From an uncultured virus (IMG/VR IMGVR_UViG_3300031612_000001) (Duplodnaviria > Heunggongvirae > Uroviricota > Caudoviricetes), in the IMG/VR virus record IMGVR_UViG_3300031612_000001: 64,000 bases of DNA. One strand, given 5' to 3'. The notes beneath the pieces are model-generated. The model had not been told where the DNA came from, searched no databases, and saw only the letters and a program-made list of their open reading frames with translations. The position numbers and the translations under genes were made by a program. Position 1 is the first letter of the stretch; the number at the start of each line of letters is the position of its first letter. This document shows positions 21,749 to 53,746 of the stretch, piece by piece.

Positions 21749-22195
21749 ATGAATAACTTAGAATCGATTCTAGCACTGTGGAAGAAAGATTGTATTATAG
21801 ATGAAATACAATTAGACGAAGCTTCCAGAGACTCAGCTAAATTGCACAGTAAATACTTAGATCTATATTCAGTCAATAGGCTGAAGCAAAAAGATCTAGA
21901 CCTCAAATACAAAATCATACTCAGAGATAAATTCAAACATTACGGTGGTAAACTGTCACAGCAAGAAATGGACCATAAAGGTTGGGAATACGATCCCCTT
22001 GGTGGTCATACAGTATTGAAAGGTGACCTTGATAAATGGTATGATGCTGATGAGGTAATACAAGAACATCAGAAAAGAATGGCCGTACAAGACGAGGTAG
22101 TTTCTACTCTAAAAGAGATAATGGAAAATATTAAATGGCGACATCAGACAATTAAAAATATGATTGAATGGAGAAAGTTCACTAGTGGAATATAA
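21749..22195 (+). CDS. uvsY: recombination mediator UvsY
   Basis: LHSKYL and IKNMIEWRKF motifs; synteny with uvsW. Confidence 0.9.
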   Translation: MNNLESILALWKKDCIIDEIQLDEASRDSAKLHSKYLDLYSVNRLKQKDLDLKYKIILRDKFKHYGGKLSQQEMDHKGWEYDPLGGHTVLKGDLDKWYDADEVIQEHQKRMAVQDEVVSTLKEIMENIKWRHQTIKNMIEWRKFTSGI

Positions 22196-23057
22196 AATCC
22201 ATCAGTATCGTTTTGATAATTTTACAGGTCGAGAAGATATAATTCGTGAAGCTATGAATGAACTTGGCCACGAAGAAAGCGAAACTCCTGAATTGAATAT
22301 ATACAATCATTGTCATATATCAGAATTAGAAACTGAGAACAATATAATATTTAAACCCACTGGTCCTACTCATAAACATTTTGCATTAGATACTATTGGT
22401 TATGCTAATAGTTCTTCTATTGCATTTAAAGAACCAGATTGGTTTCAGGTTCCTACGAAAGAAAATTTAGATTATATACAATCATTGATAAAAGCAAGAT
22501 CTAATAAGTGGGATGATTCTATTCTACTAAAATGGAGAAAGGCAAAGAACGTAGCTAATGACCATATCTTAATTATAGGACAAGTTCCAACCGACGAAAC
22601 TGTAAATGGTTTTGGGTTTGGTGATCATTTTAAAAAGCTGCAGATGATTGTAAATAGTATTAAAGATAAAAACATAATAGTTAAGTTACATCCTTCTATG
22701 AAAATACGAGGAAGAACAAAAGATATAATCGATAAATGGATTCAAGATGGTATCGATGTAAGAACTGCTTTTGAATCCATACATGATTTTCTACCTAAAA
22801 CTAGAGTAGCTATATTAGAGAACAGCACAGCAGGTATAGAATGTATGATGCACGGAGTTCCTATTATATCCTATGGCTGGCCAGAGTATCATTGGCTTAC
22901 TAAACAATTGCAATCACTAACTCAATTAGATGAAATAGTGACCGACTTAAGTTGGCACAGTGGTGTTAGTCAATCTATGTATATTAATTGGTATATAAAT
23001 AAATATCTATGCAGTGATATAGCATCAACTAAAAATAGATTACAACAGATTATATAA
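22185..23057 (+). CDS. capsule-polysaccharide-synthesis (KpsS/KpsC-like) glycosyltransferase-fold protein
   Basis: IGQVPTD, VKLHP and NSTAGIECMMHGVPIISYG motifs resemble the Capsule_synth family; probable GTG start at 22185. Confidence 0.65.
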   Translation: MEYKIHQYRFDNFTGREDIIREAMNELGHEESETPELNIYNHCHISELETENNIIFKPTGPTHKHFALDTIGYANSSSIAFKEPDWFQVPTKENLDYIQSLIKARSNKWDDSILLKWRKAKNVANDHILIIGQVPTDETVNGFGFGDHFKKLQMIVNSIKDKNIIVKLHPSMKIRGRTKDIIDKWIQDGIDVRTAFESIHDFLPKTRVAILENSTAGIECMMHGVPIISYGWPEYHWLTKQLQSLTQLDEIVTDLSWHSGVSQSMYINWYINKYLCSDIASTKNRLQQII

Positions 23058-39751: not shown

Positions 39752-40054
39752 ATGAAAAATATAAAATTAGTCAGATTAACATCAGGTGAAGAACTCATCG
39801 CAAACGTTGATCTAAACGGTATCGATACTGATACAATTATACTTAAGGATGCAATCGTTCTTATTCCAGCTGGAGAAGGTAAACTAGGCTTTATGCCATT
39901 TATGCCTTATACAAAAGCCAGGGAAGGATTTGAAGTTGATTTGAAATTCGTTATGTTTATGGTTGACCCAGTAGAAGATCTAGTTAAACAACATGCTGGC
40001 GCAACAAGTCCTATCGACTTATCTGCTTCTGCACCTTCTGGGATTATTACATAA
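39752..40054 (+). CDS. conserved hypothetical protein (Sm-like fold likely)
   Basis: IKLVRLTSGEELIA...GFMPFMPY pattern common in T4-like marine phages. Confidence 0.6.
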   Translation: MKNIKLVRLTSGEELIANVDLNGIDTDTIILKDAIVLIPAGEGKLGFMPFMPYTKAREGFEVDLKFVMFMVDPVEDLVKQHAGATSPIDLSASAPSGIIT

Positions 40055-40458
40055 TGAGTAAGGATTGGGTAAAAGATATTCACGTTATGCAAGCTAAATA
40101 TCTTACGCGACAATGGGTTGAAACTAATCCAGATAAACTCAAAGAATTCTTAGAATTTAGAGTTGATTTTCTTAAAGAAGAATTGATGGAAACTAAAAAA
40201 GCTACTACTGAAAACGATCCTGAAGAAATCGTTGATGGTCTTATCGACTTATGTGTAGTAGCAATTGGTACTCTTGATGCTTTTGGAGTAGATCCTTATA
40301 AAGCATGGGATGCAGTACTCGAAGCTAATATGAATAAAGAAGTTGGTAAAAAACCCTCAAGGCCTAACCCTTTGGGAGTGCCAGATTTAATTAAGCCAGA
40401 AGGCTGGGAAGCACCGTCACACAATGGAAACCATGGTAAGTTTAACAATATTCGATAA
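40054..40458 (+). CDS. MazG-like all-alpha NTP pyrophosphohydrolase
   Basis: EELME...EIVDGLID...ANMNK...KPEGW pattern. Confidence 0.8.
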   Translation: MSKDWVKDIHVMQAKYLTRQWVETNPDKLKEFLEFRVDFLKEELMETKKATTENDPEEIVDGLIDLCVVAIGTLDAFGVDPYKAWDAVLEANMNKEVGKKPSRPNPLGVPDLIKPEGWEAPSHNGNHGKFNNIR

Positions 40459-42394: not shown

Positions 42395-42418
42395 AGATAT
42401 ATTATTTAAGGAATTGAT

Positions 42419-42787
42419 ATGAAAGAAAGTTTAAAAGTTTTACAAGAGTGTGCTGAATTACAAGCTAGAAAATCTGATGATTACCAGAATCAGGAATCTA
42501 ACGTTACTCAAGCAATGCATTATCGCAGAGGTGTAGATAGTATACACGATATTATAAACGGTAAAATGTTACGAGCACAATCGCTGCTCGAAGCAGGCCA
42601 ACATGGTGACCCAAATTTTGAGTCCCTAGAAGATACCTACAAGGATATGATTAATTACGCATCCTTTGCAGTATCATTTATGCGTGGCAAAATGGAAGGT
42701 CAAGATCCTAACCGTGATTGCTTTAATAGACAAGCTAGACCTTTAGCAAGACCAAGTCACGAAACTGACGAGTGGGAAAGAACATGA
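42419..42787 (+). CDS. nucleotide-modification-associated domain protein (Nmad1/DUF1599-like)
   Basis: RKSDDY...KMLR...ESLEDTYKDMINYA pattern; directly upstream of the hydroxymethylase. Confidence 0.65.
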   Translation: MKESLKVLQECAELQARKSDDYQNQESNVTQAMHYRRGVDSIHDIINGKMLRAQSLLEAGQHGDPNFESLEDTYKDMINYASFAVSFMRGKMEGQDPNRDCFNRQARPLARPSHETDEWERT

Positions 42788-43443
42788 TGGAAATACCTGC
42801 AGTAAGACAATACTTTAAAACGCAATTAGCAATGGAACGATTTACTACTGATAGAAATGGTAGTAAAACAATTGAAATGATTGGTGCTTCATTTATAGCA
42901 GATGAACCAGCTATATTTGGTAAACCTAATCAAGAATATATAGATGCTGAATTAGAATGGTACGAAAGCGAATCAACTAATATCACTGATATCTATCCTG
43001 AAGGAGATAAAGAACCACCAAAGGCTTGGCAAGAAACAGCAAATGTTCATGGTGAAATTAATTCCAACTATGGTCATCTAATATACTCTGAAAAATATTA
43101 TAATCAATATGCTCAAGTAGTAGAAGAACTAGATCAAAATCCTGATAGCCGTAGAGCTGCTATGATTTATACACGTCCTAGCATTTGGCTAGAATACAAT
43201 GATCAGTTTAAAAACGATTTCATATGTACCAATGCAGTAACATATTATATTAGAGACGAGAAGCTACACAGTGTAGTTCAAATGAGATCTAATGATGTTA
43301 TCTTTGGTTATAGAAATGATTACGCTTGGCAAAAATATGTTCTAGACAAATTATCATATGATCTATATGTTCAATCTGGTGACATCCATTGGCAAGTACA
43401 GAACTTACATGTATACGAGAGGCATTTCGATTTAGTAAAATGA
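42784..43443 (+). CDS. gp42: dCMP hydroxymethylase (T4 gp42-like)
   Basis: Close match to T4 gp42 as recalled: KTIEMIGASFIADEP, ELEWY, GEINSNYG, NPDSRR, IYTRPS, DFICTN (catalytic Cys), MRSND, RNDYAWQ (Asp for dCMP specificity), LHVYERHF. Confidence 0.92.
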   Translation: MMEIPAVRQYFKTQLAMERFTTDRNGSKTIEMIGASFIADEPAIFGKPNQEYIDAELEWYESESTNITDIYPEGDKEPPKAWQETANVHGEINSNYGHLIYSEKYYNQYAQVVEELDQNPDSRRAAMIYTRPSIWLEYNDQFKNDFICTNAVTYYIRDEKLHSVVQMRSNDVIFGYRNDYAWQKYVLDKLSYDLYVQSGDIHWQVQNLHVYERHFDLVK

Positions 43444-43892
43444 ATAATAATAAATGGTATCCAAGATATTTAGAACTAGCCAAGCTTGTAGCTACATGGA
43501 GTAAAGATCCAAGTACTCAAGTTGGAGCTGTTGCAGTAGGAAATAAAGGTCAAATATTAGCTCAAGGTTATAACGGATATCCTCGAGGATTTGACGATAC
43601 TAACTATGAAAATAAAGAACATAAGTATGCACGTATAGTCCATGCTGAAATGAATTGTATATACAACGCTTCATGGAATGGAGTATCTCTAAATGAAGCT
43701 ACATTGTTTGTTTGGGGATTACCAGTTTGTCATGAATGCGCTAAAGCTATTATCCAAGTTGGAATAAAGACCGTTGTAATACCACTAACCACGCAAGAGA
43801 TTCCGCAAAAATGGGATGACTCTTTTAGATTAACTACTAAATTTTTCGTTGATGCAGGCGTAAAAGTAGAGATACACGATATAAAATTATGA
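43440..43892 (+). CDS. dCMP deaminase
   Basis: SKDPSTQVGAV, GYNG, HAEMN and PVCHECAK zinc motifs. Confidence 0.92.
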   Translation: MNNNKWYPRYLELAKLVATWSKDPSTQVGAVAVGNKGQILAQGYNGYPRGFDDTNYENKEHKYARIVHAEMNCIYNASWNGVSLNEATLFVWGLPVCHECAKAIIQVGIKTVVIPLTTQEIPQKWDDSFRLTTKFFVDAGVKVEIHDIKL

Positions 43893-44182
43893 AAAAATTT
43901 GATGTAAAAGAAATAGAACACAGCAAAAGAATATTTAAATCTGCTACTCCAAAATACACACTTGATTGGTATGTAAAATGGGTGGCATCGGTATTCGTAT
44001 TAGCTGCAATGTCAATACGAGGTATTGATGGTTGGCAACTATATGATTTACTCCTGTCAGCTACGGGTGTAGGTCTATGGACAGTAGTTGCACTGCTTTG
44101 GAAAGATAGAGCATTGATTCTATTAAACTCGGTAGGATTTATACTACTAATAAGAAACTTAATAACGTATATATCCTCATGA
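43889..44182 (+). CDS. small multi-pass membrane protein
   Basis: DWYVKW...WKDRALILLN with three hydrophobic segments. Confidence 0.65.
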   Translation: MKKFDVKEIEHSKRIFKSATPKYTLDWYVKWVASVFVLAAMSIRGIDGWQLYDLLLSATGVGLWTVVALLWKDRALILLNSVGFILLIRNLITYISS

Positions 44183-44625
44183 GATTAGATTATAAGAACG
44201 TCGGAAAGATAGGAATAACATTCTCATGTTTCGATTTATTGCATGCTGGTCATGTCACAATGCTCGAAGAAGCAAAAAGACACTGTGACTATTTAATAGT
44301 AGGATTACAGACAGATCCAAGCATAGACCGACCAGAAAAAAATAAGCCAATCCAATCTATTGTAGAAAGACAAATACAATTAGCTGGACTTAAATACGTA
44401 GATGAGATAGTAACATACCAAACAGAAAATGATATTATGGATTTACTATTAACATTACCTATAAGTGTCAGAGTAGTTGGCGAAGATTACAAGGGAAAAG
44501 AATTCACTGGTAAAGAGCTCTGTATCCAACAGAAAATTAAAATCATATATAATAGTAGGAAGCACAGTTTTAGTACTTCAACATTGAGAGAAAGGTTACA
44601 TGAGAATAGCAATAACAGGAAGTAA
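44179..44625 (+). CDS. tagD: TagD-like (glycerol-3-phosphate) cytidylyltransferase
   Basis: FDLLHAGH (HxGH), LIVGL, ER...YVDE, G.DY and STSTLR motifs. Confidence 0.8.
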   Translation: MRLDYKNVGKIGITFSCFDLLHAGHVTMLEEAKRHCDYLIVGLQTDPSIDRPEKNKPIQSIVERQIQLAGLKYVDEIVTYQTENDIMDLLLTLPISVRVVGEDYKGKEFTGKELCIQQKIKIIYNSRKHSFSTSTLRERLHENSNNRK

Positions 44626-45445
44626 CGGTTACATAGGCAAACGCTTAATAGAAAAATTAAAAGGTAGCGGTCACGATATCTTAGAAATAGATCTTATTAG
44701 GCAGCAAGATTATTACAATCGTGAAGTTAATATTAAAGGTCCAAAGGTATCTTGGAATATCACTACTACACCTTATCATGGTGGATTGCCATGGTGTTGG
44801 ATACAATACGATTGTGTAGTCCATTTAGCAGCTTTAGTTAAAGTTGGTGAAAGCGTTGAAAAGCCATGGGAATACTATAATACTAATATCAATGGTACTC
44901 GAAACGTTATCGAAGCATTTCCAGGAGCTAAATTTATTTTTGCTTCAACAGGTGCAGCTTTTGATCCAACGTCTCCTTATGCAAAATCGAAAGTAGTTGC
45001 AGAAGATATAGTAAGAAGTCTATGTGATGACTATACAGTATTTAGATTCTTTAATGTCGGGGGTGGAAAACCAAATAACCCTGAAGGATTATATGCCGCT
45101 ACGCAAAACGCAATTAAATCTGGTGAGTTTACTATTTGGGGAGATGATTATAATACAAGCGATGGAACATGTGTAAGAGATTACGTACACGTCGATGATA
45201 TATGTAATGCAATTATCCGTGCAATCGATAAGCCTGGAAGCTGGGCTGATTACGAACCATTAGGATCAGGACAATCATACACAGTTAAACAATACATGGA
45301 AACGTTTCTAAAAGTAAACGGTCCATTGTTCGAGCTCAAATACGGACCTCGTAGACCTGGAGATAACGAGTATTCTGCAGTTCCATTTAAGTCAAAATTT
45401 ATAACACCAGAAAAAACATTAGAAGATATAGTGAGGATAACATAA
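44600..45445 (+). CDS. galE: NDP-sugar 4-epimerase (GalE-like)
   Basis: GSNGYIG, HLAA...VGES, YAKSK, RFFNV, DGTCVRDYVHV and RRPGD motifs. Confidence 0.85.
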   Translation: MRIAITGSNGYIGKRLIEKLKGSGHDILEIDLIRQQDYYNREVNIKGPKVSWNITTTPYHGGLPWCWIQYDCVVHLAALVKVGESVEKPWEYYNTNINGTRNVIEAFPGAKFIFASTGAAFDPTSPYAKSKVVAEDIVRSLCDDYTVFRFFNVGGGKPNNPEGLYAATQNAIKSGEFTIWGDDYNTSDGTCVRDYVHVDDICNAIIRAIDKPGSWADYEPLGSGQSYTVKQYMETFLKVNGPLFELKYGPRRPGDNEYSAVPFKSKFITPEKTLEDIVRIT

Positions 45446-46554
45446 TGAAAATATTAATAACCGGAATGAATAAAAATCAAACAACAAAAGATTTCTATTT
45501 AAGACAACAGCTAAAGGTAGTACCATCACACTATTCATTGATTCGATGTTTAGAAGATATGGGACACGAGGTAGAGCAAAGATTAGTAAAGATCGGAGAA
45601 GATCTAGGAGATTATGACAAAGTAATCTGTTTCCTAGCATCACCTAGACAAGCTTTACAATTAGCGTTCTATAATGGACTATGGGCTATTCACGCTACCG
45701 CAAAGCATAACCTTATTCTTGCAATGGATGATTGGCAGACAGAAGATATCTTTAAAGGTATTCAATCATGTACAGATAAGGAATCACTCTTAAAAGAATT
45801 TACCATCGGACAAAACAAGATGTGTGACCCTGATATGTCATATGAACTATTAGAACCACATGCTGAAACTTTGTTAGATGCTGTTAAATTCATTGGAGAG
45901 AAAAGAAGGCCAATGTTGTTATCAGTGTTTATGGGTGGTGACATGTCTAAGCTCATTAATTATCCTGAAGATTTATTAGTAGGATATGATCCTAATCCAT
46001 ATCATAGGAATCGAACTCCTGGAAATAGAGGCGATATCGAAATAGAAGATATGGAATTCATGGAGCAATCTCTGATGCCAAGTATAGAAGAAGATACTAT
46101 TGGACCCGATGAGAAAGCTATGGTCTTTAACTTCGCTTCACTTGTACAAGGTAAAACAAAACGCTGGTTAAAGCAGCAAAACGTTAGTGAGTGGGATATC
46201 GAATTCTTTGGATCTAGAAAAGAAAAACAAAGACGATTACTCGAAAGTGATATGTGTAAAGTATATGCAGAACAATGGGGAAGTTTAATGCCAGGTTACC
46301 CTCATGCAGGTTCAGGTTGGTGGAGAGCTAGACCTTATCAAGTAGCTGATGGTGGTTCTATTCTAATTGGTGAATACGACGAAATGTATTTGCTATATGG
46401 AGACGAATACCTTGCAGGCTTAACTGCTCAAAACCTAGAAGAAATGAATATAGAAGAACTAACTTCTGTAGCAGAACGCCAAAAAGATGCGCTATATAGT
46501 AGGCATCCATTGGATAAAAGAAAGCAACAGAAAGAACTAGGTGTTATTCTGTGA
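45445..46554 (+). CDS. T4 beta-glucosyltransferase-like DNA glycosyltransferase (GT-B)
   Basis: Colinear by eye with T4 BGT as recalled: MKILITGMNKN, VPS...DMGHEV, DYDKVI, Asp at AMDDW, IEFFGSRKEKQ, R.R.YQ....SILI. Confidence 0.7.
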   Translation: MKILITGMNKNQTTKDFYLRQQLKVVPSHYSLIRCLEDMGHEVEQRLVKIGEDLGDYDKVICFLASPRQALQLAFYNGLWAIHATAKHNLILAMDDWQTEDIFKGIQSCTDKESLLKEFTIGQNKMCDPDMSYELLEPHAETLLDAVKFIGEKRRPMLLSVFMGGDMSKLINYPEDLLVGYDPNPYHRNRTPGNRGDIEIEDMEFMEQSLMPSIEEDTIGPDEKAMVFNFASLVQGKTKRWLKQQNVSEWDIEFFGSRKEKQRRLLESDMCKVYAEQWGSLMPGYPHAGSGWWRARPYQVADGGSILIGEYDEMYLLYGDEYLAGLTAQNLEEMNIEELTSVAERQKDALYSRHPLDKRKQQKELGVIL

Positions 46555-47555
46555 AGATATTAGTAGTTGGCGCTGGATTTGCTGGTGCAGTTATAGCAAG
46601 GGAATGCGCAGAACAAGGACACACGATAGATGTAATAGATCAAAGAGATCACATTGGTGGTAATGCTTATGACTACACTGATGAAAATGGAATACGAATT
46701 CATAAATATGGTCCACATCTCTTTCATACAAACAACGTTGATGTAGTGAAGTGGCTATCTAGATTTACTGAATGGACTCAGTATCAGCATAAAGTTAAAG
46801 CTCAATTGGATGATGGACGTTATGTTACTCTACCAGTTAATAAAGAAACAAAAGAAATAGTGGGTGAAGAGAATGTACTAGATATTTTCTTTAGACCTTA
46901 CACTTATAAGATGTGGGGTAAAACATTAGATGAATTAAATCCTGCAATAATAAACAGAGTTCCAATACGAGATGATGATAATGAGTTGTATTTTCCTAAT
47001 GACAAGTATCAGCAAATGCCGAAAGAAGGTTATACTAAGTTGTTTGAGAATATCTTTAGTCATACTAATATTAACGTATGTACTTCAGTAGCTTTCAATA
47101 AATTAATGGAAGAGGATTATGATTATATCTTTAACTCGATGCCTATAGATGAGTACTTTGATAATTGCCATGGTGAATTGCCATATAGATCTATCAAGTT
47201 TCATAACGTAACACTAAATCAAACTAAAGTTTTACCAACAGGAACAGTTAATTTTACACATGATGGTCCATTTACAAGAGTAACCGAATGGAAGAATATA
47301 GCAAATCACGGAGTAAACGACTATAAAACAGTGCTTACTTACGAAGAGCCATGTGATTATAAGGATAATAATATGGAAAGATACTATCCAGTTCAAGACG
47401 TAGAAGGAACTAATAGAGATACGTATAAGAAATACAAAGATATGGTAGACGAATCTAAAATGAAATTTATCGGAAGGTGCGGTCAATATGTTTATATCGA
47501 TATGCACATGGCAGTTGGCGGAGCATTAGCAGTAGCAAGGAAATTTTTAAAATGA
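46551..47555 (+). CDS. glf: UDP-galactopyranose mutase
   Basis: GAGFAG FAD motif; IGGNAYD; HKYGPHLFHT; YTYKMWG; RYYP; GRCGQYVYIDM. Confidence 0.92.
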   Translation: MKILVVGAGFAGAVIARECAEQGHTIDVIDQRDHIGGNAYDYTDENGIRIHKYGPHLFHTNNVDVVKWLSRFTEWTQYQHKVKAQLDDGRYVTLPVNKETKEIVGEENVLDIFFRPYTYKMWGKTLDELNPAIINRVPIRDDDNELYFPNDKYQQMPKEGYTKLFENIFSHTNINVCTSVAFNKLMEEDYDYIFNSMPIDEYFDNCHGELPYRSIKFHNVTLNQTKVLPTGTVNFTHDGPFTRVTEWKNIANHGVNDYKTVLTYEEPCDYKDNNMERYYPVQDVEGTNRDTYKKYKDMVDESKMKFIGRCGQYVYIDMHMAVGGALAVARKFLK

Positions 47556-48736
47556 ATTACGCATCAATAGTACCCTTAATTGGCGGGTCAACAATAGCCA
47601 TGCAAAACGTATTTGGTAAAAGACCAGAATATATGATGACATACGATGGGTTTCAAGATAATGAAAAGCATCTTATTAATTATTATAATAATGAAGTACC
47701 ATATTATAATCTATCAGAAGGACCTAAACCAACTCATAACGTTGATGTAGTAAATACAGTATGTCCTTGTGCAGGATTAAGTTCTCTATCGGTTGCATCT
47801 AGTTCTACTAATGAAGCTAATGACTGGATGGTCACTTCTGCAGAATACGTACTAAGTACAGTTAAACCTAAAGTATTCTGGGGAGAGAATGCACCGAGGC
47901 TAGCATCTAAAATGGGTGAGCCCGTAGTAGAAAAATTAAGAAGGATTGCTTATAGACATGGATATACATTTTCATTGCTACAAACTAAGTCAATACTCCA
48001 TGGGCTAAGCCAAACTAGAGATCGATCATTCTATTTCTTTTGGAAAGATAGTAAAGTTCCTCTCTTTGATTATATTCATGAAGCACCAGGAAACATAGCA
48101 GAAGATATTAGATCAATATCCTTAGATAGTAGTGATCCAATGTCAGCTTTAACTAATGAAAAAACACCCTCAGAAAATCCATTTTATCGATATGTATTAG
48201 AAGCAATCGAAGGTGGTATTACTCATAAAGAATTCAGTTCCAAGCTTACTAAATCATGTAACGTTATGGACTATATAGAAGAACATACGAATTATAAAGA
48301 AGTTTCAGTTTGGATGGAAGAGCATGGATTTGAAAAAGAATCTAAGAGATGCTTGACAATGTATCACAAATTAAAATCAGGTGGCAATATTATGAGAAAG
48401 AATATTGAAGTACCATGTGATAAAATTGGTGCATTTGTTGGTCATCTACCAACTATGTTAACTCATCCAGATGAAGACAGATTCTTGACTGTAAGGGAAG
48501 CCTTATACATTATGAGAATGCCAAGTGATTTCGAATTGCTTGACCCTAAAAGAACACTAAACCATATATGTCAAAACGTTCCGGTTACAACTGCAGAGTT
48601 TGCAGCTAAACAGATCTATAAATATTTAAATGGACAGATTGATTTAGTAGACACAGATTTTCTTATTCAAGATAATCGAAAAAAAGCCATAAAATATCAA
48701 AAAAACAGTGTACAACTCGACAGTTTTATGGTATAA
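47552..48736 (+). CDS. divergent C5-cytosine methyltransferase-like protein
   Basis: Motifs IV (CPCAGLS), VI (GENA), VIII (QTRDR), IX (HPDEDRFLTVRE) and X (QNVP) present; motif I FxGxGG replaced by VPLIGG. Confidence 0.75.
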   Translation: MNYASIVPLIGGSTIAMQNVFGKRPEYMMTYDGFQDNEKHLINYYNNEVPYYNLSEGPKPTHNVDVVNTVCPCAGLSSLSVASSSTNEANDWMVTSAEYVLSTVKPKVFWGENAPRLASKMGEPVVEKLRRIAYRHGYTFSLLQTKSILHGLSQTRDRSFYFFWKDSKVPLFDYIHEAPGNIAEDIRSISLDSSDPMSALTNEKTPSENPFYRYVLEAIEGGITHKEFSSKLTKSCNVMDYIEEHTNYKEVSVWMEEHGFEKESKRCLTMYHKLKSGGNIMRKNIEVPCDKIGAFVGHLPTMLTHPDEDRFLTVREALYIMRMPSDFELLDPKRTLNHICQNVPVTTAEFAAKQIYKYLNGQIDLVDTDFLIQDNRKKAIKYQKNSVQLDSFMV

Positions 48737-48760: not shown

Positions 48761-49270
48761 ATGTTAAATACAAACGAAAAATTTCCAGGATTTATGCTTA
48801 ACGGCGTAAACTCGGAAAATCAAATTGTTCAAGTTAAATCAGAAGATCTTTCTGGTTCTTGGGCAGTCATTTACTTCTACCCAAAAGACTTTACGTTCAT
48901 TTGTCCAACTGAAATTTCAGGTATGGATAAACTATGCGAAGAGGCTATTGTAATGGGAGTATCTGGTGATAATGAATATTGTAAGCAAGCTTGGAAAAAA
49001 TCCAATCCGCTTATAAAAGACATTACACATACACTGGCAGCCGATCCCGGTTTGTCATTAGCAGGAAGATGTGATATCATTAATATGATTGATCTTGTAG
49101 CAAATAGAGCAACGTTCATTATCGACCCTGAAGGTATAATCCAACATTCATCAATGAATGCAATGGATACTGGAAGGAACGTAGATGTACTATTACAAAC
49201 TCTCGAGGCACTTAAAGCAGGCGGTTTAACCGGATGTGATTGGGTTGCAGGAGAGCAGTTCGTTGCCTAG
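48761..49270 (+). CDS. ahpC: peroxiredoxin (AhpC/Prx1)
   Basis: [24 protein letters not shown] and GRN motifs; C-terminal Cys. Confidence 0.92.
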
Positions 49271-49514
49271 TGTAGATCTAAGACCGCGTAAACCAAATCC
49301 TAAGGATAAAAGACCTCAGAAGGAAATGCCCTTTGATGTTGGTTTACGCAAATTTAAGAAAGCTTGTGAGAGAGCTGGAATCGTGCAGGAGGTTCGTAGG
49401 AAAGAATTCTATGAAAAGCCAACTGCTAAAAGAAAGAGAAAAAAGGCTGAAGCAATTGCTCGTACTCGCAAGCAAGAAAGAGCAGCAAAATTAAGACCGA
49501 ACAGGTGGAGATAA
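49263..49514 (+). CDS. rpsU: ribosomal protein bS21
   Basis: [38 protein letters not shown]; probable TTG start at 49263. Confidence 0.88.
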
Positions 49515-52262: not shown

Positions 52263-52454
52263 ATGGAGAAAATATATATGTTAAATTCGATAAAAAACTG
52301 GGTAAAAAATAGATTGCCTGAAAGAACTTCACATGACGGAGTATTGCTTATTGTGATATGCGGTAGTGTGTTGCTTTTTGGTGGTGTAGCTAAACTACTC
52401 GCATGGGTAGGAATAGGTTACGGTATCTATACTTTAGTCAGAGAGGAAGCGTAA
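52263..52454 (+). CDS. small membrane protein
   Basis: ERTSHDG followed by two hydrophobic segments. Confidence 0.6.
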   Translation: MEKIYMLNSIKNWVKNRLPERTSHDGVLLIVICGSVLLFGGVAKLLAWVGIGYGIYTLVREEA

Positions 52455-53071
52455 TGAGTTATTTAAAATCATTAGGAATGGCAACATTATTAATTCCATC
52501 ATTTTCATTTGCAGACGTAAGTGGTAGTGTAGGATATAGTAGTGATTACATGTGGAGAGGGGCAACTCAATCCAATGGCCAATCTAGCTTTAACGCCAAT
52601 CTTGAAGTAGAATCCAACGGTTTCTTTGCAGGTGCATGGACTGGACAAGTTGACTTCGGAGACGATGCATCTTGGGAAAGGAATCTATATTTAGGATATG
52701 GCTTTAGCGTTAGTGATAACTTAAGCGTCAAAGCGGGTATTAATCAAATACGTTATGACGGTGGTGGAAGAGGCGTGAAAGAAGAAGGATTTGTTAAAGT
52801 AAATTACAAAAACTTAAACGTCATGTATTTTCTAGACACCGAAAATGAAGATGATTACGCGCATATCAGCTATGACATATCGGACTTTGTTCCAGTAGTA
52901 GATGTAGCTCTTGGTTATGGTTACCATGACGAAGAAAATGATTTCTCGACAATGACCGTATCATATGATCTAAACGATGAATTCGAACTTAGCATGATGG
53001 TAATGCTTGACATGGCTTTCGAAAATCAGTTTAGTGATTCTGTATCTCTCGGTTTACATTATAATTTTTAA
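52454..53071 (+). CDS. TorF/Gcw_chp-like outer-membrane beta-barrel protein
   Basis: Signal peptide ending SFA; SDYMWRGATQ; GAW...VDF; alternating beta strands; C-terminal YNF. Confidence 0.8.
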   Translation: MSYLKSLGMATLLIPSFSFADVSGSVGYSSDYMWRGATQSNGQSSFNANLEVESNGFFAGAWTGQVDFGDDASWERNLYLGYGFSVSDNLSVKAGINQIRYDGGGRGVKEEGFVKVNYKNLNVMYFLDTENEDDYAHISYDISDFVPVVDVALGYGYHDEENDFSTMTVSYDLNDEFELSMMVMLDMAFENQFSDSVSLGLHYNF

Positions 53072-53089
53072 GAAAAGGACTAATATATA

Positions 53090-53746
53090 ATGATGGATGT
53101 GAAACTCATATCATATTCACAACCAGCTGTAGACTTCGATATACCAAACGATGTTCTACAGTTGGTTGCCTATTGCGCTAGGGTATCAAACCCAGACAAT
53201 CAGAATAATGAAAAAACAGCAGAAGGTCTAGTTAAGTATTTAATGAAGCACAAACATTGGTCACCATTAGAAATGGTATCTGTTTGTATGGAGATTAATT
53301 GCCCTAGAGACATTGCTAGACAAATACTTCGGCATCGTTCATTCTCTTTTCAAGAGTTTAGTCAACGATACGCCGACCCAACAAAAGACTTAAAGTTCAC
53401 TACGAGAGCAGCAAGGATGCAAGATCCTAGTAACCGTCAGAATTCTATTGAATTACCAGAAGACGATACTATTAACTACATCTGGGAATCATATCAAGAA
53501 ACAATAATCGAAAGATGTAAGAAAGCATATGATTGGGCTATCGAAGCTGGCATAGCAAAAGAACAAGCCCGTGCAGTATTGCCTGAGGGTTTAACTATGT
53601 CACGTATGTATGTTAATGGAACGCTAAGAAGCTGGATTCATTACATAGAACTAAGAGGATCTCATGGTACTCAAGAAGAACACATAGAAATAGCCAAAGC
53701 CTGTGGCAAGGTAATTGACACTATATTCACTCCCTTATCTAAATAA
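53090..53746 (+). CDS. thyX: flavin-dependent thymidylate synthase ThyX
   Basis: HWSPLE, RHRSFSFQEFSQRY and EQARAVLP motifs. Confidence 0.96.
   Translation: MMDVKLISYSQPAVDFDIPNDVLQLVAYCARVSNPDNQNNEKTAEGLVKYLMKHKHWSPLEMVSVCMEINCPRDIARQILRHRSFSFQEFSQRYADPTKDLKFTTRAARMQDPSNRQNSIELPEDDTINYIWESYQETIIERCKKAYDWAIEAGIAKEQARAVLPEGLTMSRMYVNGTLRSWIHYIELRGSHGTQEEHIEIAKACGKVIDTIFTPLSK

Follow-up and report, generated by a model that had tools for sequence, protein, structure and literature searches.

The 369-aa protein encoded at 45445–46554 of the window (the whole analysed stretch of DNA, 64,000 nucleotides long) is a real but remote homologue of the T4 β-glucosyltransferase (BGT) and lies outside the BGT family as Pfam defines it (PF09198). 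From its sequence and gene context, this glycosyltransferase (GT) is probably a DNA galactofuranosyltransferase that makes Galf-hydroxymethylcytosine (Galf-hmC). The reading draws on the overlap of the gene with those of a GalE-type epimerase and a mutase, a gp42-type enzyme in the same operon, a GT-B fold whose nearest match is BGT, and the conservation of these links.

Operon and gene family

The ORF is intact on the plus strand; its ATG shares 1 nt with the stop codon of the epimerase gene, and its stop codon shares 4 nt with the GTG of the mutase gene. An independent assembly spans 42400–47769 with three differences. The source contig, 120,761 bp long, belongs to a T4-like phage, has an estimated completeness of 67% and was seen in marine metagenome runs. 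Short contigs from one seawater RNA run are dotted across the operon and may reflect DNA carry-over. The features discussed here are the following.

40054–40458, plus strand: MazG/PRA-PH nucleotide pyrophosphohydrolase, a candidate dCTPase (PF01503, phrog_671)
42419–42787, plus strand: Nucleotide modification associated domain 1 (Nmad1, DUF1599; PF07659, 26 bits against a cut-off of 25)
42772–43443, plus strand: T4 gp42-type dCMP hydroxymethylase (DFIC...RSND...RND; 1b49, E 7.5e-73; 55% identical to T-even gp42)
43389–43892, plus strand: dCMP deaminase (PF00383, phrog_174)
43889–44182, plus strand: DUF6552 small protein (Pfam)
44179–44625, plus strand: cytidylyltransferase-like protein (PF01467)
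44600–45445, plus strand: GalE-type NAD-dependent epimerase, predicted to convert UDP-Glc to UDP-Galp (PF01370, E 2.3e-32)
45445–46554, plus strand: BGT-like GT-B glycosyltransferase, predicted DNA galactofuranosyltransferase (phrog_14998, fold, profile)
46551–47555, plus strand: UDP-galactopyranose mutase (Glf), predicted to convert UDP-Galp to UDP-Galf (PF03275, 179.9 bits against a cut-off of 26.3; 3hdq, E 6.4e-76)
47477–48736, plus strand: C5-cytosine methyltransferase-like protein with a PCA catalytic motif (PF00145)
53090–53746, plus strand: ThyX (PF02511)

The best PDB matches of the epimerase are UDP-glucose 4-epimerases (E 1.5e-30). Aligned with 3hdq, the mutase, whose activity is predicted, contains the FAD motif and the conserved active-site Arg, Trp, Tyr and His, which we take to be functional residues; between its positions 101 and 108 the phage protein lacks ~40 residues of the bacterial enzymes. 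With ThyX as the predicted source of dTMP, the gp42-like enzyme would be dispensable as a thymidylate synthase. A search of the phage genome, which is 67% complete, turned up no dNMP kinase.

To follow these genes across relatives we compiled 84 loci, consisting of the best 80 of 182 IMG/VR relatives plus four GenBank phages. The DUF6552 protein occurs in just 9 of the 84 and is no conserved part of the operon. The cytidylyltransferase-like gene is present in 30 of the same 84 loci, as well as in 11 of the 19 loci of a TET-linked clade described below, and its product may attach another group to the sugar. The C5-methyltransferase-like gene occurs in 45 of the 84. Here, a gene of this type with a PCA motif stands in a genome that is predicted to contain hmC in place of C; domains related to it are also fused to distant GT homologues, some of them with UDG domains or inteins. 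A second GT-like gene (PF05159) lies at 22164–23057, between uvsY and uvsW. Host-like genes for a peroxiredoxin, ribosomal protein S21 and a Gcw_chp protein occupy 48761–49514 and 52403–53071, and Fe-S assembly and curli-secretion-like genes, judged by eye, lie further along the contig.

The GT matches phrog_14998, a group of unknown function, from end to end (E 5.8e-35). One search returned 631 relatives and an exhaustive search 614 clusters at 50% identity; the family occurs in marine metagenomes and cultured phages. A Pfam scan of the ORF gave no family at E ≤ 0.05, and a PDB sequence search with either the ORF or the family HMM gave no match at E ≤ 10. A search of ESM Atlas gave nothing but viral clusters without names and PF13524-type GTs. 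A pattern scan covering 185,579 prokaryote genomes returned only two matches, both on MAG contigs and one of them with the phage gene order. The protein is acidic, with 43 K+R against 59 D+E (49 against 43 in T4 BGT), partly owing to a variable acidic insert.

Distant members of the family, at 22–23% identity, occur in Morganella and Providencia phages. The match in Rgz1, a Morganella phage, overlaps with a putative arabinose-5-phosphate isomerase gene, a hint that one branch of the family may use an arabinose donor. Loci of the DSL-LC01 type (L004:9148-10137, L125-L136) carry a second, diverged GT paralogue without the DDW and WWRxR motifs.

Fold and active site compared with T4 BGT

The GT was modelled with AlphaFold2 from 108 sequences (pLDDT 93.5). 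Foldseek placed BGT first (1nzd, E 6.5e-7) and SenB next (E 7.9e-6). A VIA search also returned BGT on top (Z 16.4, rmsd 4.0, 297 of 351 residues aligned, 1–369 against 1–349), with glycogen synthase at Z 15.1, SenB at 14.8 and T4 α-GT at 14.2. In a second VIA search of 48,161 representative chains, BGT was again first (Z 15.6, rmsd 3.7, 281 residues aligned), the next chain scoring 14.6. BGT thus ranks first in all three structure searches, and its lead over non-DNA GT-B enzymes, which gave no better match, is a small 1.0–1.3 Z units.

A profile of 124 GT sequences aligned with one of 45 BGT sequences from one end to the other, over 303 columns (P 92.8%, E 4e-7). Controls for this match reached 0.15% for the reversed profile, 26% for the best of 30 block shuffles and 1.4% for the best of 30 column shuffles. 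A wider GT profile of 117 diverse sequences matched BGT over just the C-terminal 118 columns (P 78.5%, controls ≤ 32%), and middle and C-terminal sub-profiles aligned alone to BGT gave no match. The GT is 14% identical to T4 BGT, an HMM of 45 BGT homologues did not match the ORF at E ≤ 1e-3, and the family HMM of PF09198 does not include it. T4 α-GT was rejected as the closest relative (hhalign P 0.3%; Z 14.2, under BGT).

These results support the preliminary description, which had proposed a remote BGT homologue: BGT is first in Foldseek and both VIA searches, and the profile match exceeds its controls. The colinearity that it had seen by eye holds over the 303 profile columns and in the structural superposition of 1–369 on 1–349. 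The BGT motifs that it quoted agree with the true T4 BGT sequence. Three of the five motif pairs it had drawn share 6/11, 5/10 and 8/11 identities, but the other two share almost none (1/5 and 1/6).

One of the weak pairs equated AMDDW with the region of the BGT catalytic Asp. D100 is the catalytic residue of T4 BGT (bioRxiv 10.1101/2023.12.21.572611). Its equivalent in the GT would be D96, which follows strand 90–94 of the model and is kept in all 124 close sequences and in 115 of the 117 diverse ones. The register emerged solely from global sub-alignments of the N-terminal part, where column confidence was low, and the full-length alignment places no such pair. On this comparison D96 is likely the catalytic base. 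In the C48C1 clade, position 95 is Glu, not Asp.

The preliminary description also held that the region before the UDP-binding Arg had been replaced by GYPHAGSGWW. Positions 284–293 pair with BGT 257–266, and 284–296 with 257–269, with no insertion or deletion. BGT residues D258, Y261, N264, T267, R269 and E272 correspond to Y285, A288, G291, R294, R296 and Q299, respectively, and E22 pairs with H29. R191 pairs with Q235 and R195 with a gap, both at low confidence. We take R191, R195, R269 and E272 to be the UDP-binding residues of BGT and E22, D258, Y261 and N264 to sit near the glucose; between them, these residues bind glucose, phosphate and ribose. The R269 equivalent is kept in the GT as R296; E272 is not kept, and R191 and R195 appear not to be. 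R294 is invariant in 117 of 117 diverse sequences and Q299 is found in just 32 of 117. R294 and R296 are likely phosphate-binding. E22, D258, Y261 and N264 are conserved in 43, 41, 44 and 40 of 45 BGT homologues, respectively, and are absent from the GT.

Across the aligned sequences, the GYPHAGSGWW loop is a family-wide substitution of the same length and a signature of the family. What had been described as a replacement is a substitution, with nothing inserted or deleted. The further step, that the loop indicates a different sugar donor, is likely right in its outcome, given the GalE and mutase neighbours, but the loop itself supports it weakly, as most positions differ at 14% identity. Members that have an adjacent mutase and members that lack one share an identical HAGSGWWR loop, so the loop alone cannot name the donor.

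Sugar donor and acceptor

We base the donor instead on the genes on either side, those of GalE and the UDP-galactopyranose mutase, which had no part in the earlier argument. In the 84 loci (best 80 of 182 plus four), the mutase is present in 83, the sole exception having 419 bp of downstream DNA, and the epimerase in 63. Over a larger set of 125 loci the mutase occurs in 108; when the 115 full-length GTs were clustered, leaving out 10 partial proteins, it accompanied 48 of 54 clusters at 90% identity and 16 of the 19 formed at 70%. Four phages keep the pair of GT and mutase at 24–35% identity: Aeromonas phage 25, Erwinia phage FBB1, C48C1 and actinophage DSL-LC01. Among these and Lactobacillus phage ATCCB, C48C1 alone has an epimerase match, so the other four would use host GalE. 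Counting against the Galf reading, the DSL-LC01 clade has 14 loci out of 21 (one of the 14 truncated) with no nearby mutase. Actinobacterial hosts make UDP-Galf themselves, which could explain the mutase-less loci.

Homology to mutases does not fix the sugar, and Glf-family enzymes accept other pyranoses. It is conceivable, if unlikely, that the GT modifies the same DNA acceptor from another donor, be it a different mutase product (UDP-L-arabinofuranose or UDP-GalfNAc) or UDP-galactopyranose. The tolerance of the Glf family and the phage mutase being ~40 residues shorter would allow for this; the best matches of the epimerase, however, are GalE enzymes. C48C1 carries a UDP-glucose dehydrogenase gene, but this has no tblastn match in the 67%-complete genome of the window. 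Pentose-modified cytosines are known in T4-like phages, yet according to the same source (PMC13326640), RB69 and DLP3 arabinosylate by an arabinose-5-phosphate route without a mutase, and the mutase-bearing RL38J1 has galactose next to the base.

We regard it as quite improbable that the GT is an ordinary hmC glucosyltransferase, with the mutase product serving another enzyme such as that encoded by the GT-like gene (PF05159) at 22164–23057. Homology to BGT, the presence of this second gene and the same loop in members without an adjacent mutase would suit plain glucose, but the mutase adjoins the GT in T4-like marine phages, Aeromonas and Erwinia phages and an actinophage at 24–35% identity, and E22, D258, Y261 and N264, conserved in BGT, are missing.

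The acceptor of the proposed Galf transfer is indicated by linkage to hydroxymethyl-pyrimidine synthesis. A thymidylate-synthase homologue is present in 63 of the 84 loci (best 80 of 182 plus four), and all 63 carry the hydroxymethylase signature. This signature, together with D169N as the criterion for a 5-hydroxy-dCMP synthase, is taken from PMC13326640. The gp42-type protein at 42772–43443, an orthologue of T4 gp42, shows the catalytic Cys, an acidic residue at the L143 position, D169 and N177D. D169N is found in none of the 63 linked homologues (same best 80 of 182 plus four), while RSND is found in all 63. We therefore rejected 5-hydroxycytosine, made by an RB69/RL38J1-type 5-hydroxy-dCMP synthase, as the base. 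Both Aeromonas phage 25 and Erwinia phage FBB1, which are in culture, have the GT and mutase together and a gp42 of the same type at another place in the genome.

C48C1 (L001:5586-9033) differs in that a TET/JBP dioxygenase gene overlaps the start of the GT gene, with the GT-mutase pair downstream. The dioxygenase has a Pfam match of 62.6 bits against a cut-off of 34.9 and an HxD...H motif; this was preferred to a tRNA-guanine transglycosylase, which PHROG weakly suggested. The complete C48C1 genome contains no ThyA-family and no C5-methyltransferase match. For want of a ThyA-family gene, C48C1 had been considered a counter-example, and the upstream TET/JBP match turned it into support. In the sister clade related to C48C1, TET/JBP lies upstream in 17 of 19 loci, and the two misses are without upstream DNA; in L110 it occupies the primase-to-uvsX slot, where relatives of the window have gp42. 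Thymidylate-synthase and TET homologues occur together in 0 of 125 loci. As the TET-linked GTs form one clade, the swap of TET for gp42 counts once. The window's own genome (67% complete) contains no TET/JBP. Five fragmentary IMG/VR contigs were uninformative, with gp42 unmatched in four and TET and C5-methyltransferase unmatched in all five. Phage TETs oxidise thymine and are often GT-linked, as described in PMC8256090 and PMC13229309. C48C1 and the TET-clade loci (L104-L122, L124) are candidates for Galf-hmU.

Distant homologues point to DNA as well. Of 21 long ones, 13 are fused to C5-cytosine methyltransferases (three of these also to a UDG domain), one to a dUTPase and two to other methyltransferases; the protein at 47477–48736 has a blastp match to 8 of the 21. 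Taken together, the gp42/TET linkage, the C5-methyltransferase fusions and the near absence of the family from prokaryote genomes favour DNA as the acceptor. Transfer to a virion protein or host surface glycan, with gp42 linked by mere proximity, is the least probable alternative and very doubtful: many non-DNA GT-B enzymes lie within 1.3–3 Z units, the GT is acidic and marine phages have surface-glycan gene clusters (PMC7824862). Against this, the GT is linked to two alternative routes to a hydroxymethyl-pyrimidine that are never found together, some homologues are fused to DNA methyltransferase domains and UDG domains, the fold searches are topped by BGT and the GT is nearly missing from cellular genomes.

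Proposed pathway, known systems and implications

In the proposed pathway to Galf-hmC, the gp42-type enzyme would make hm-dCMP, which would enter the DNA, while GalE and Glf would convert UDP-Glc to UDP-Galp and then to UDP-Galf. The GT would transfer Galf from UDP-Galf onto the hmC hydroxyl in the phage's own replicated DNA, with D96 acting as a base on the flipped hmC hydroxyl in the manner of BGT D100. R294 with R296 would hold the diphosphate where BGT uses R191, R195 and R269, and the GSGWW loop would shape the sugar pocket. BGT acts by an inverting mechanism, and inversion by analogy would give β-D-Galf-hmC. The Galf would shield the phage DNA from host nucleases and permit evasion of restriction, including by enzymes that target glucosyl-hmC.

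With T4 BGT (PF09198, which we take to be CAZy GT63) the GT shares the GT-B fold, length, colinear topology, an Asp after strand 4, an Arg at the R269 position and the link to a gp42-type hydroxymethylase. It differs in its 14% identity, the absence of a Pfam match, the absence of E22, D258, Y261, N264 and E272 and apparently of R191 and R195, and the possession of its own GalE and mutase. In Lactobacillus phage ATCCB (MK504445.1, L087:6167-9222), a hydroxymethylase-type thymidylate synthase, a BGT-like GT and a mutase likewise stand in a row; unlike our family, however, the ATCCB GT is a recognisable BGT homologue (31% to T4) that the GT-family HMM does not match. Its 258–264 loop is also altered, with Y261 changed to Met, and shortened. 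ATCCB possibly represents an independent switch to a furanose donor. The GT family may already be listed in the computational survey of DNA base-modification systems that Iyer and colleagues published in 2013.

PMC13326640 describes two further systems. The Rhizobium phage RL38J1 (Pootjesviridae) has galactose next to 5-hydroxycytosine, and UDP-Galf from a phage mutase has been proposed as its source. A phage UDP-galactopyranose mutase and UDP-Galf as the proposed donor of the first sugar on a cytosine derivative are common to both cases; in RL38J1, however, the base is 5-hydroxycytosine, made via D169N, and further glucoses are added, whereas D169 here indicates hmC (PMC13326640). RL38J1 gp215 (phrog_3891), the galactosyltransferase of that pathway, belongs to a different PHROG and has no detectable homology to the GT family (hhalign P 0.7%, against the single sequence). 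RB69 and DLP3, with arabinosyl-5-hydroxycytosine, are similar in placing a furanose from a phage-made donor on a cytosine derivative and dissimilar in that the sugar is a pentose from arabinose-5-phosphate, the base is different and the GTs are different (PMC13326640).

BGT-like GT-B enzymes that put other sugars on hmC have been described in the Pyle preprint (bioRxiv 10.1101/2023.12.21.572611). The C5-methyltransferase/5mYOX-associated subclass III enzymes GT53, GT66 and GT94 resemble the present GT in their BGT-like GT-B structure, similar Foldseek E-values and altered sugar-pocket loops. They are set apart by their description, in which hmC is post-replicative and bulkier sugars are discussed; in the main text of the preprint, 'mutase' and 'furanos' have 0 occurrences. 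Our literature search, which lay largely outside subscription papers, found no description of Galf-hmC or of the phrog_14998 family.

More tentatively, the 614 clusters may form a viral DNA furanosyltransferase family in which gp42 would lead to Galf-hmC, TET/JBP without a cytosine methylase (as in C48C1) would lead to Galf-hmU, and the PCA C5-methyltransferase would represent a further, undescribed step. Galf-hmU in the C48C1 clade, if true, would be a phage counterpart of trypanosome base J.

If the Galf-hmC assignment is correct, it would introduce a new hypermodified base and give a function to the unannotated phrog_14998. Aeromonas phage 25 has been listed with gene 42 and without glucosyltransferases, and what modifies its hmC was asked (PMC2993671). 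Galf would answer the question of what protects such gene-42 phages in place of the T4 glucosyltransferases. Phages with the family would also be predicted to resist nucleases directed at glucosyl-hmC, and the GT could join T4 BGT as a second enzyme for labelling hmC; Aeromonas phage 25 and Erwinia phage FBB1 are cultured carriers.
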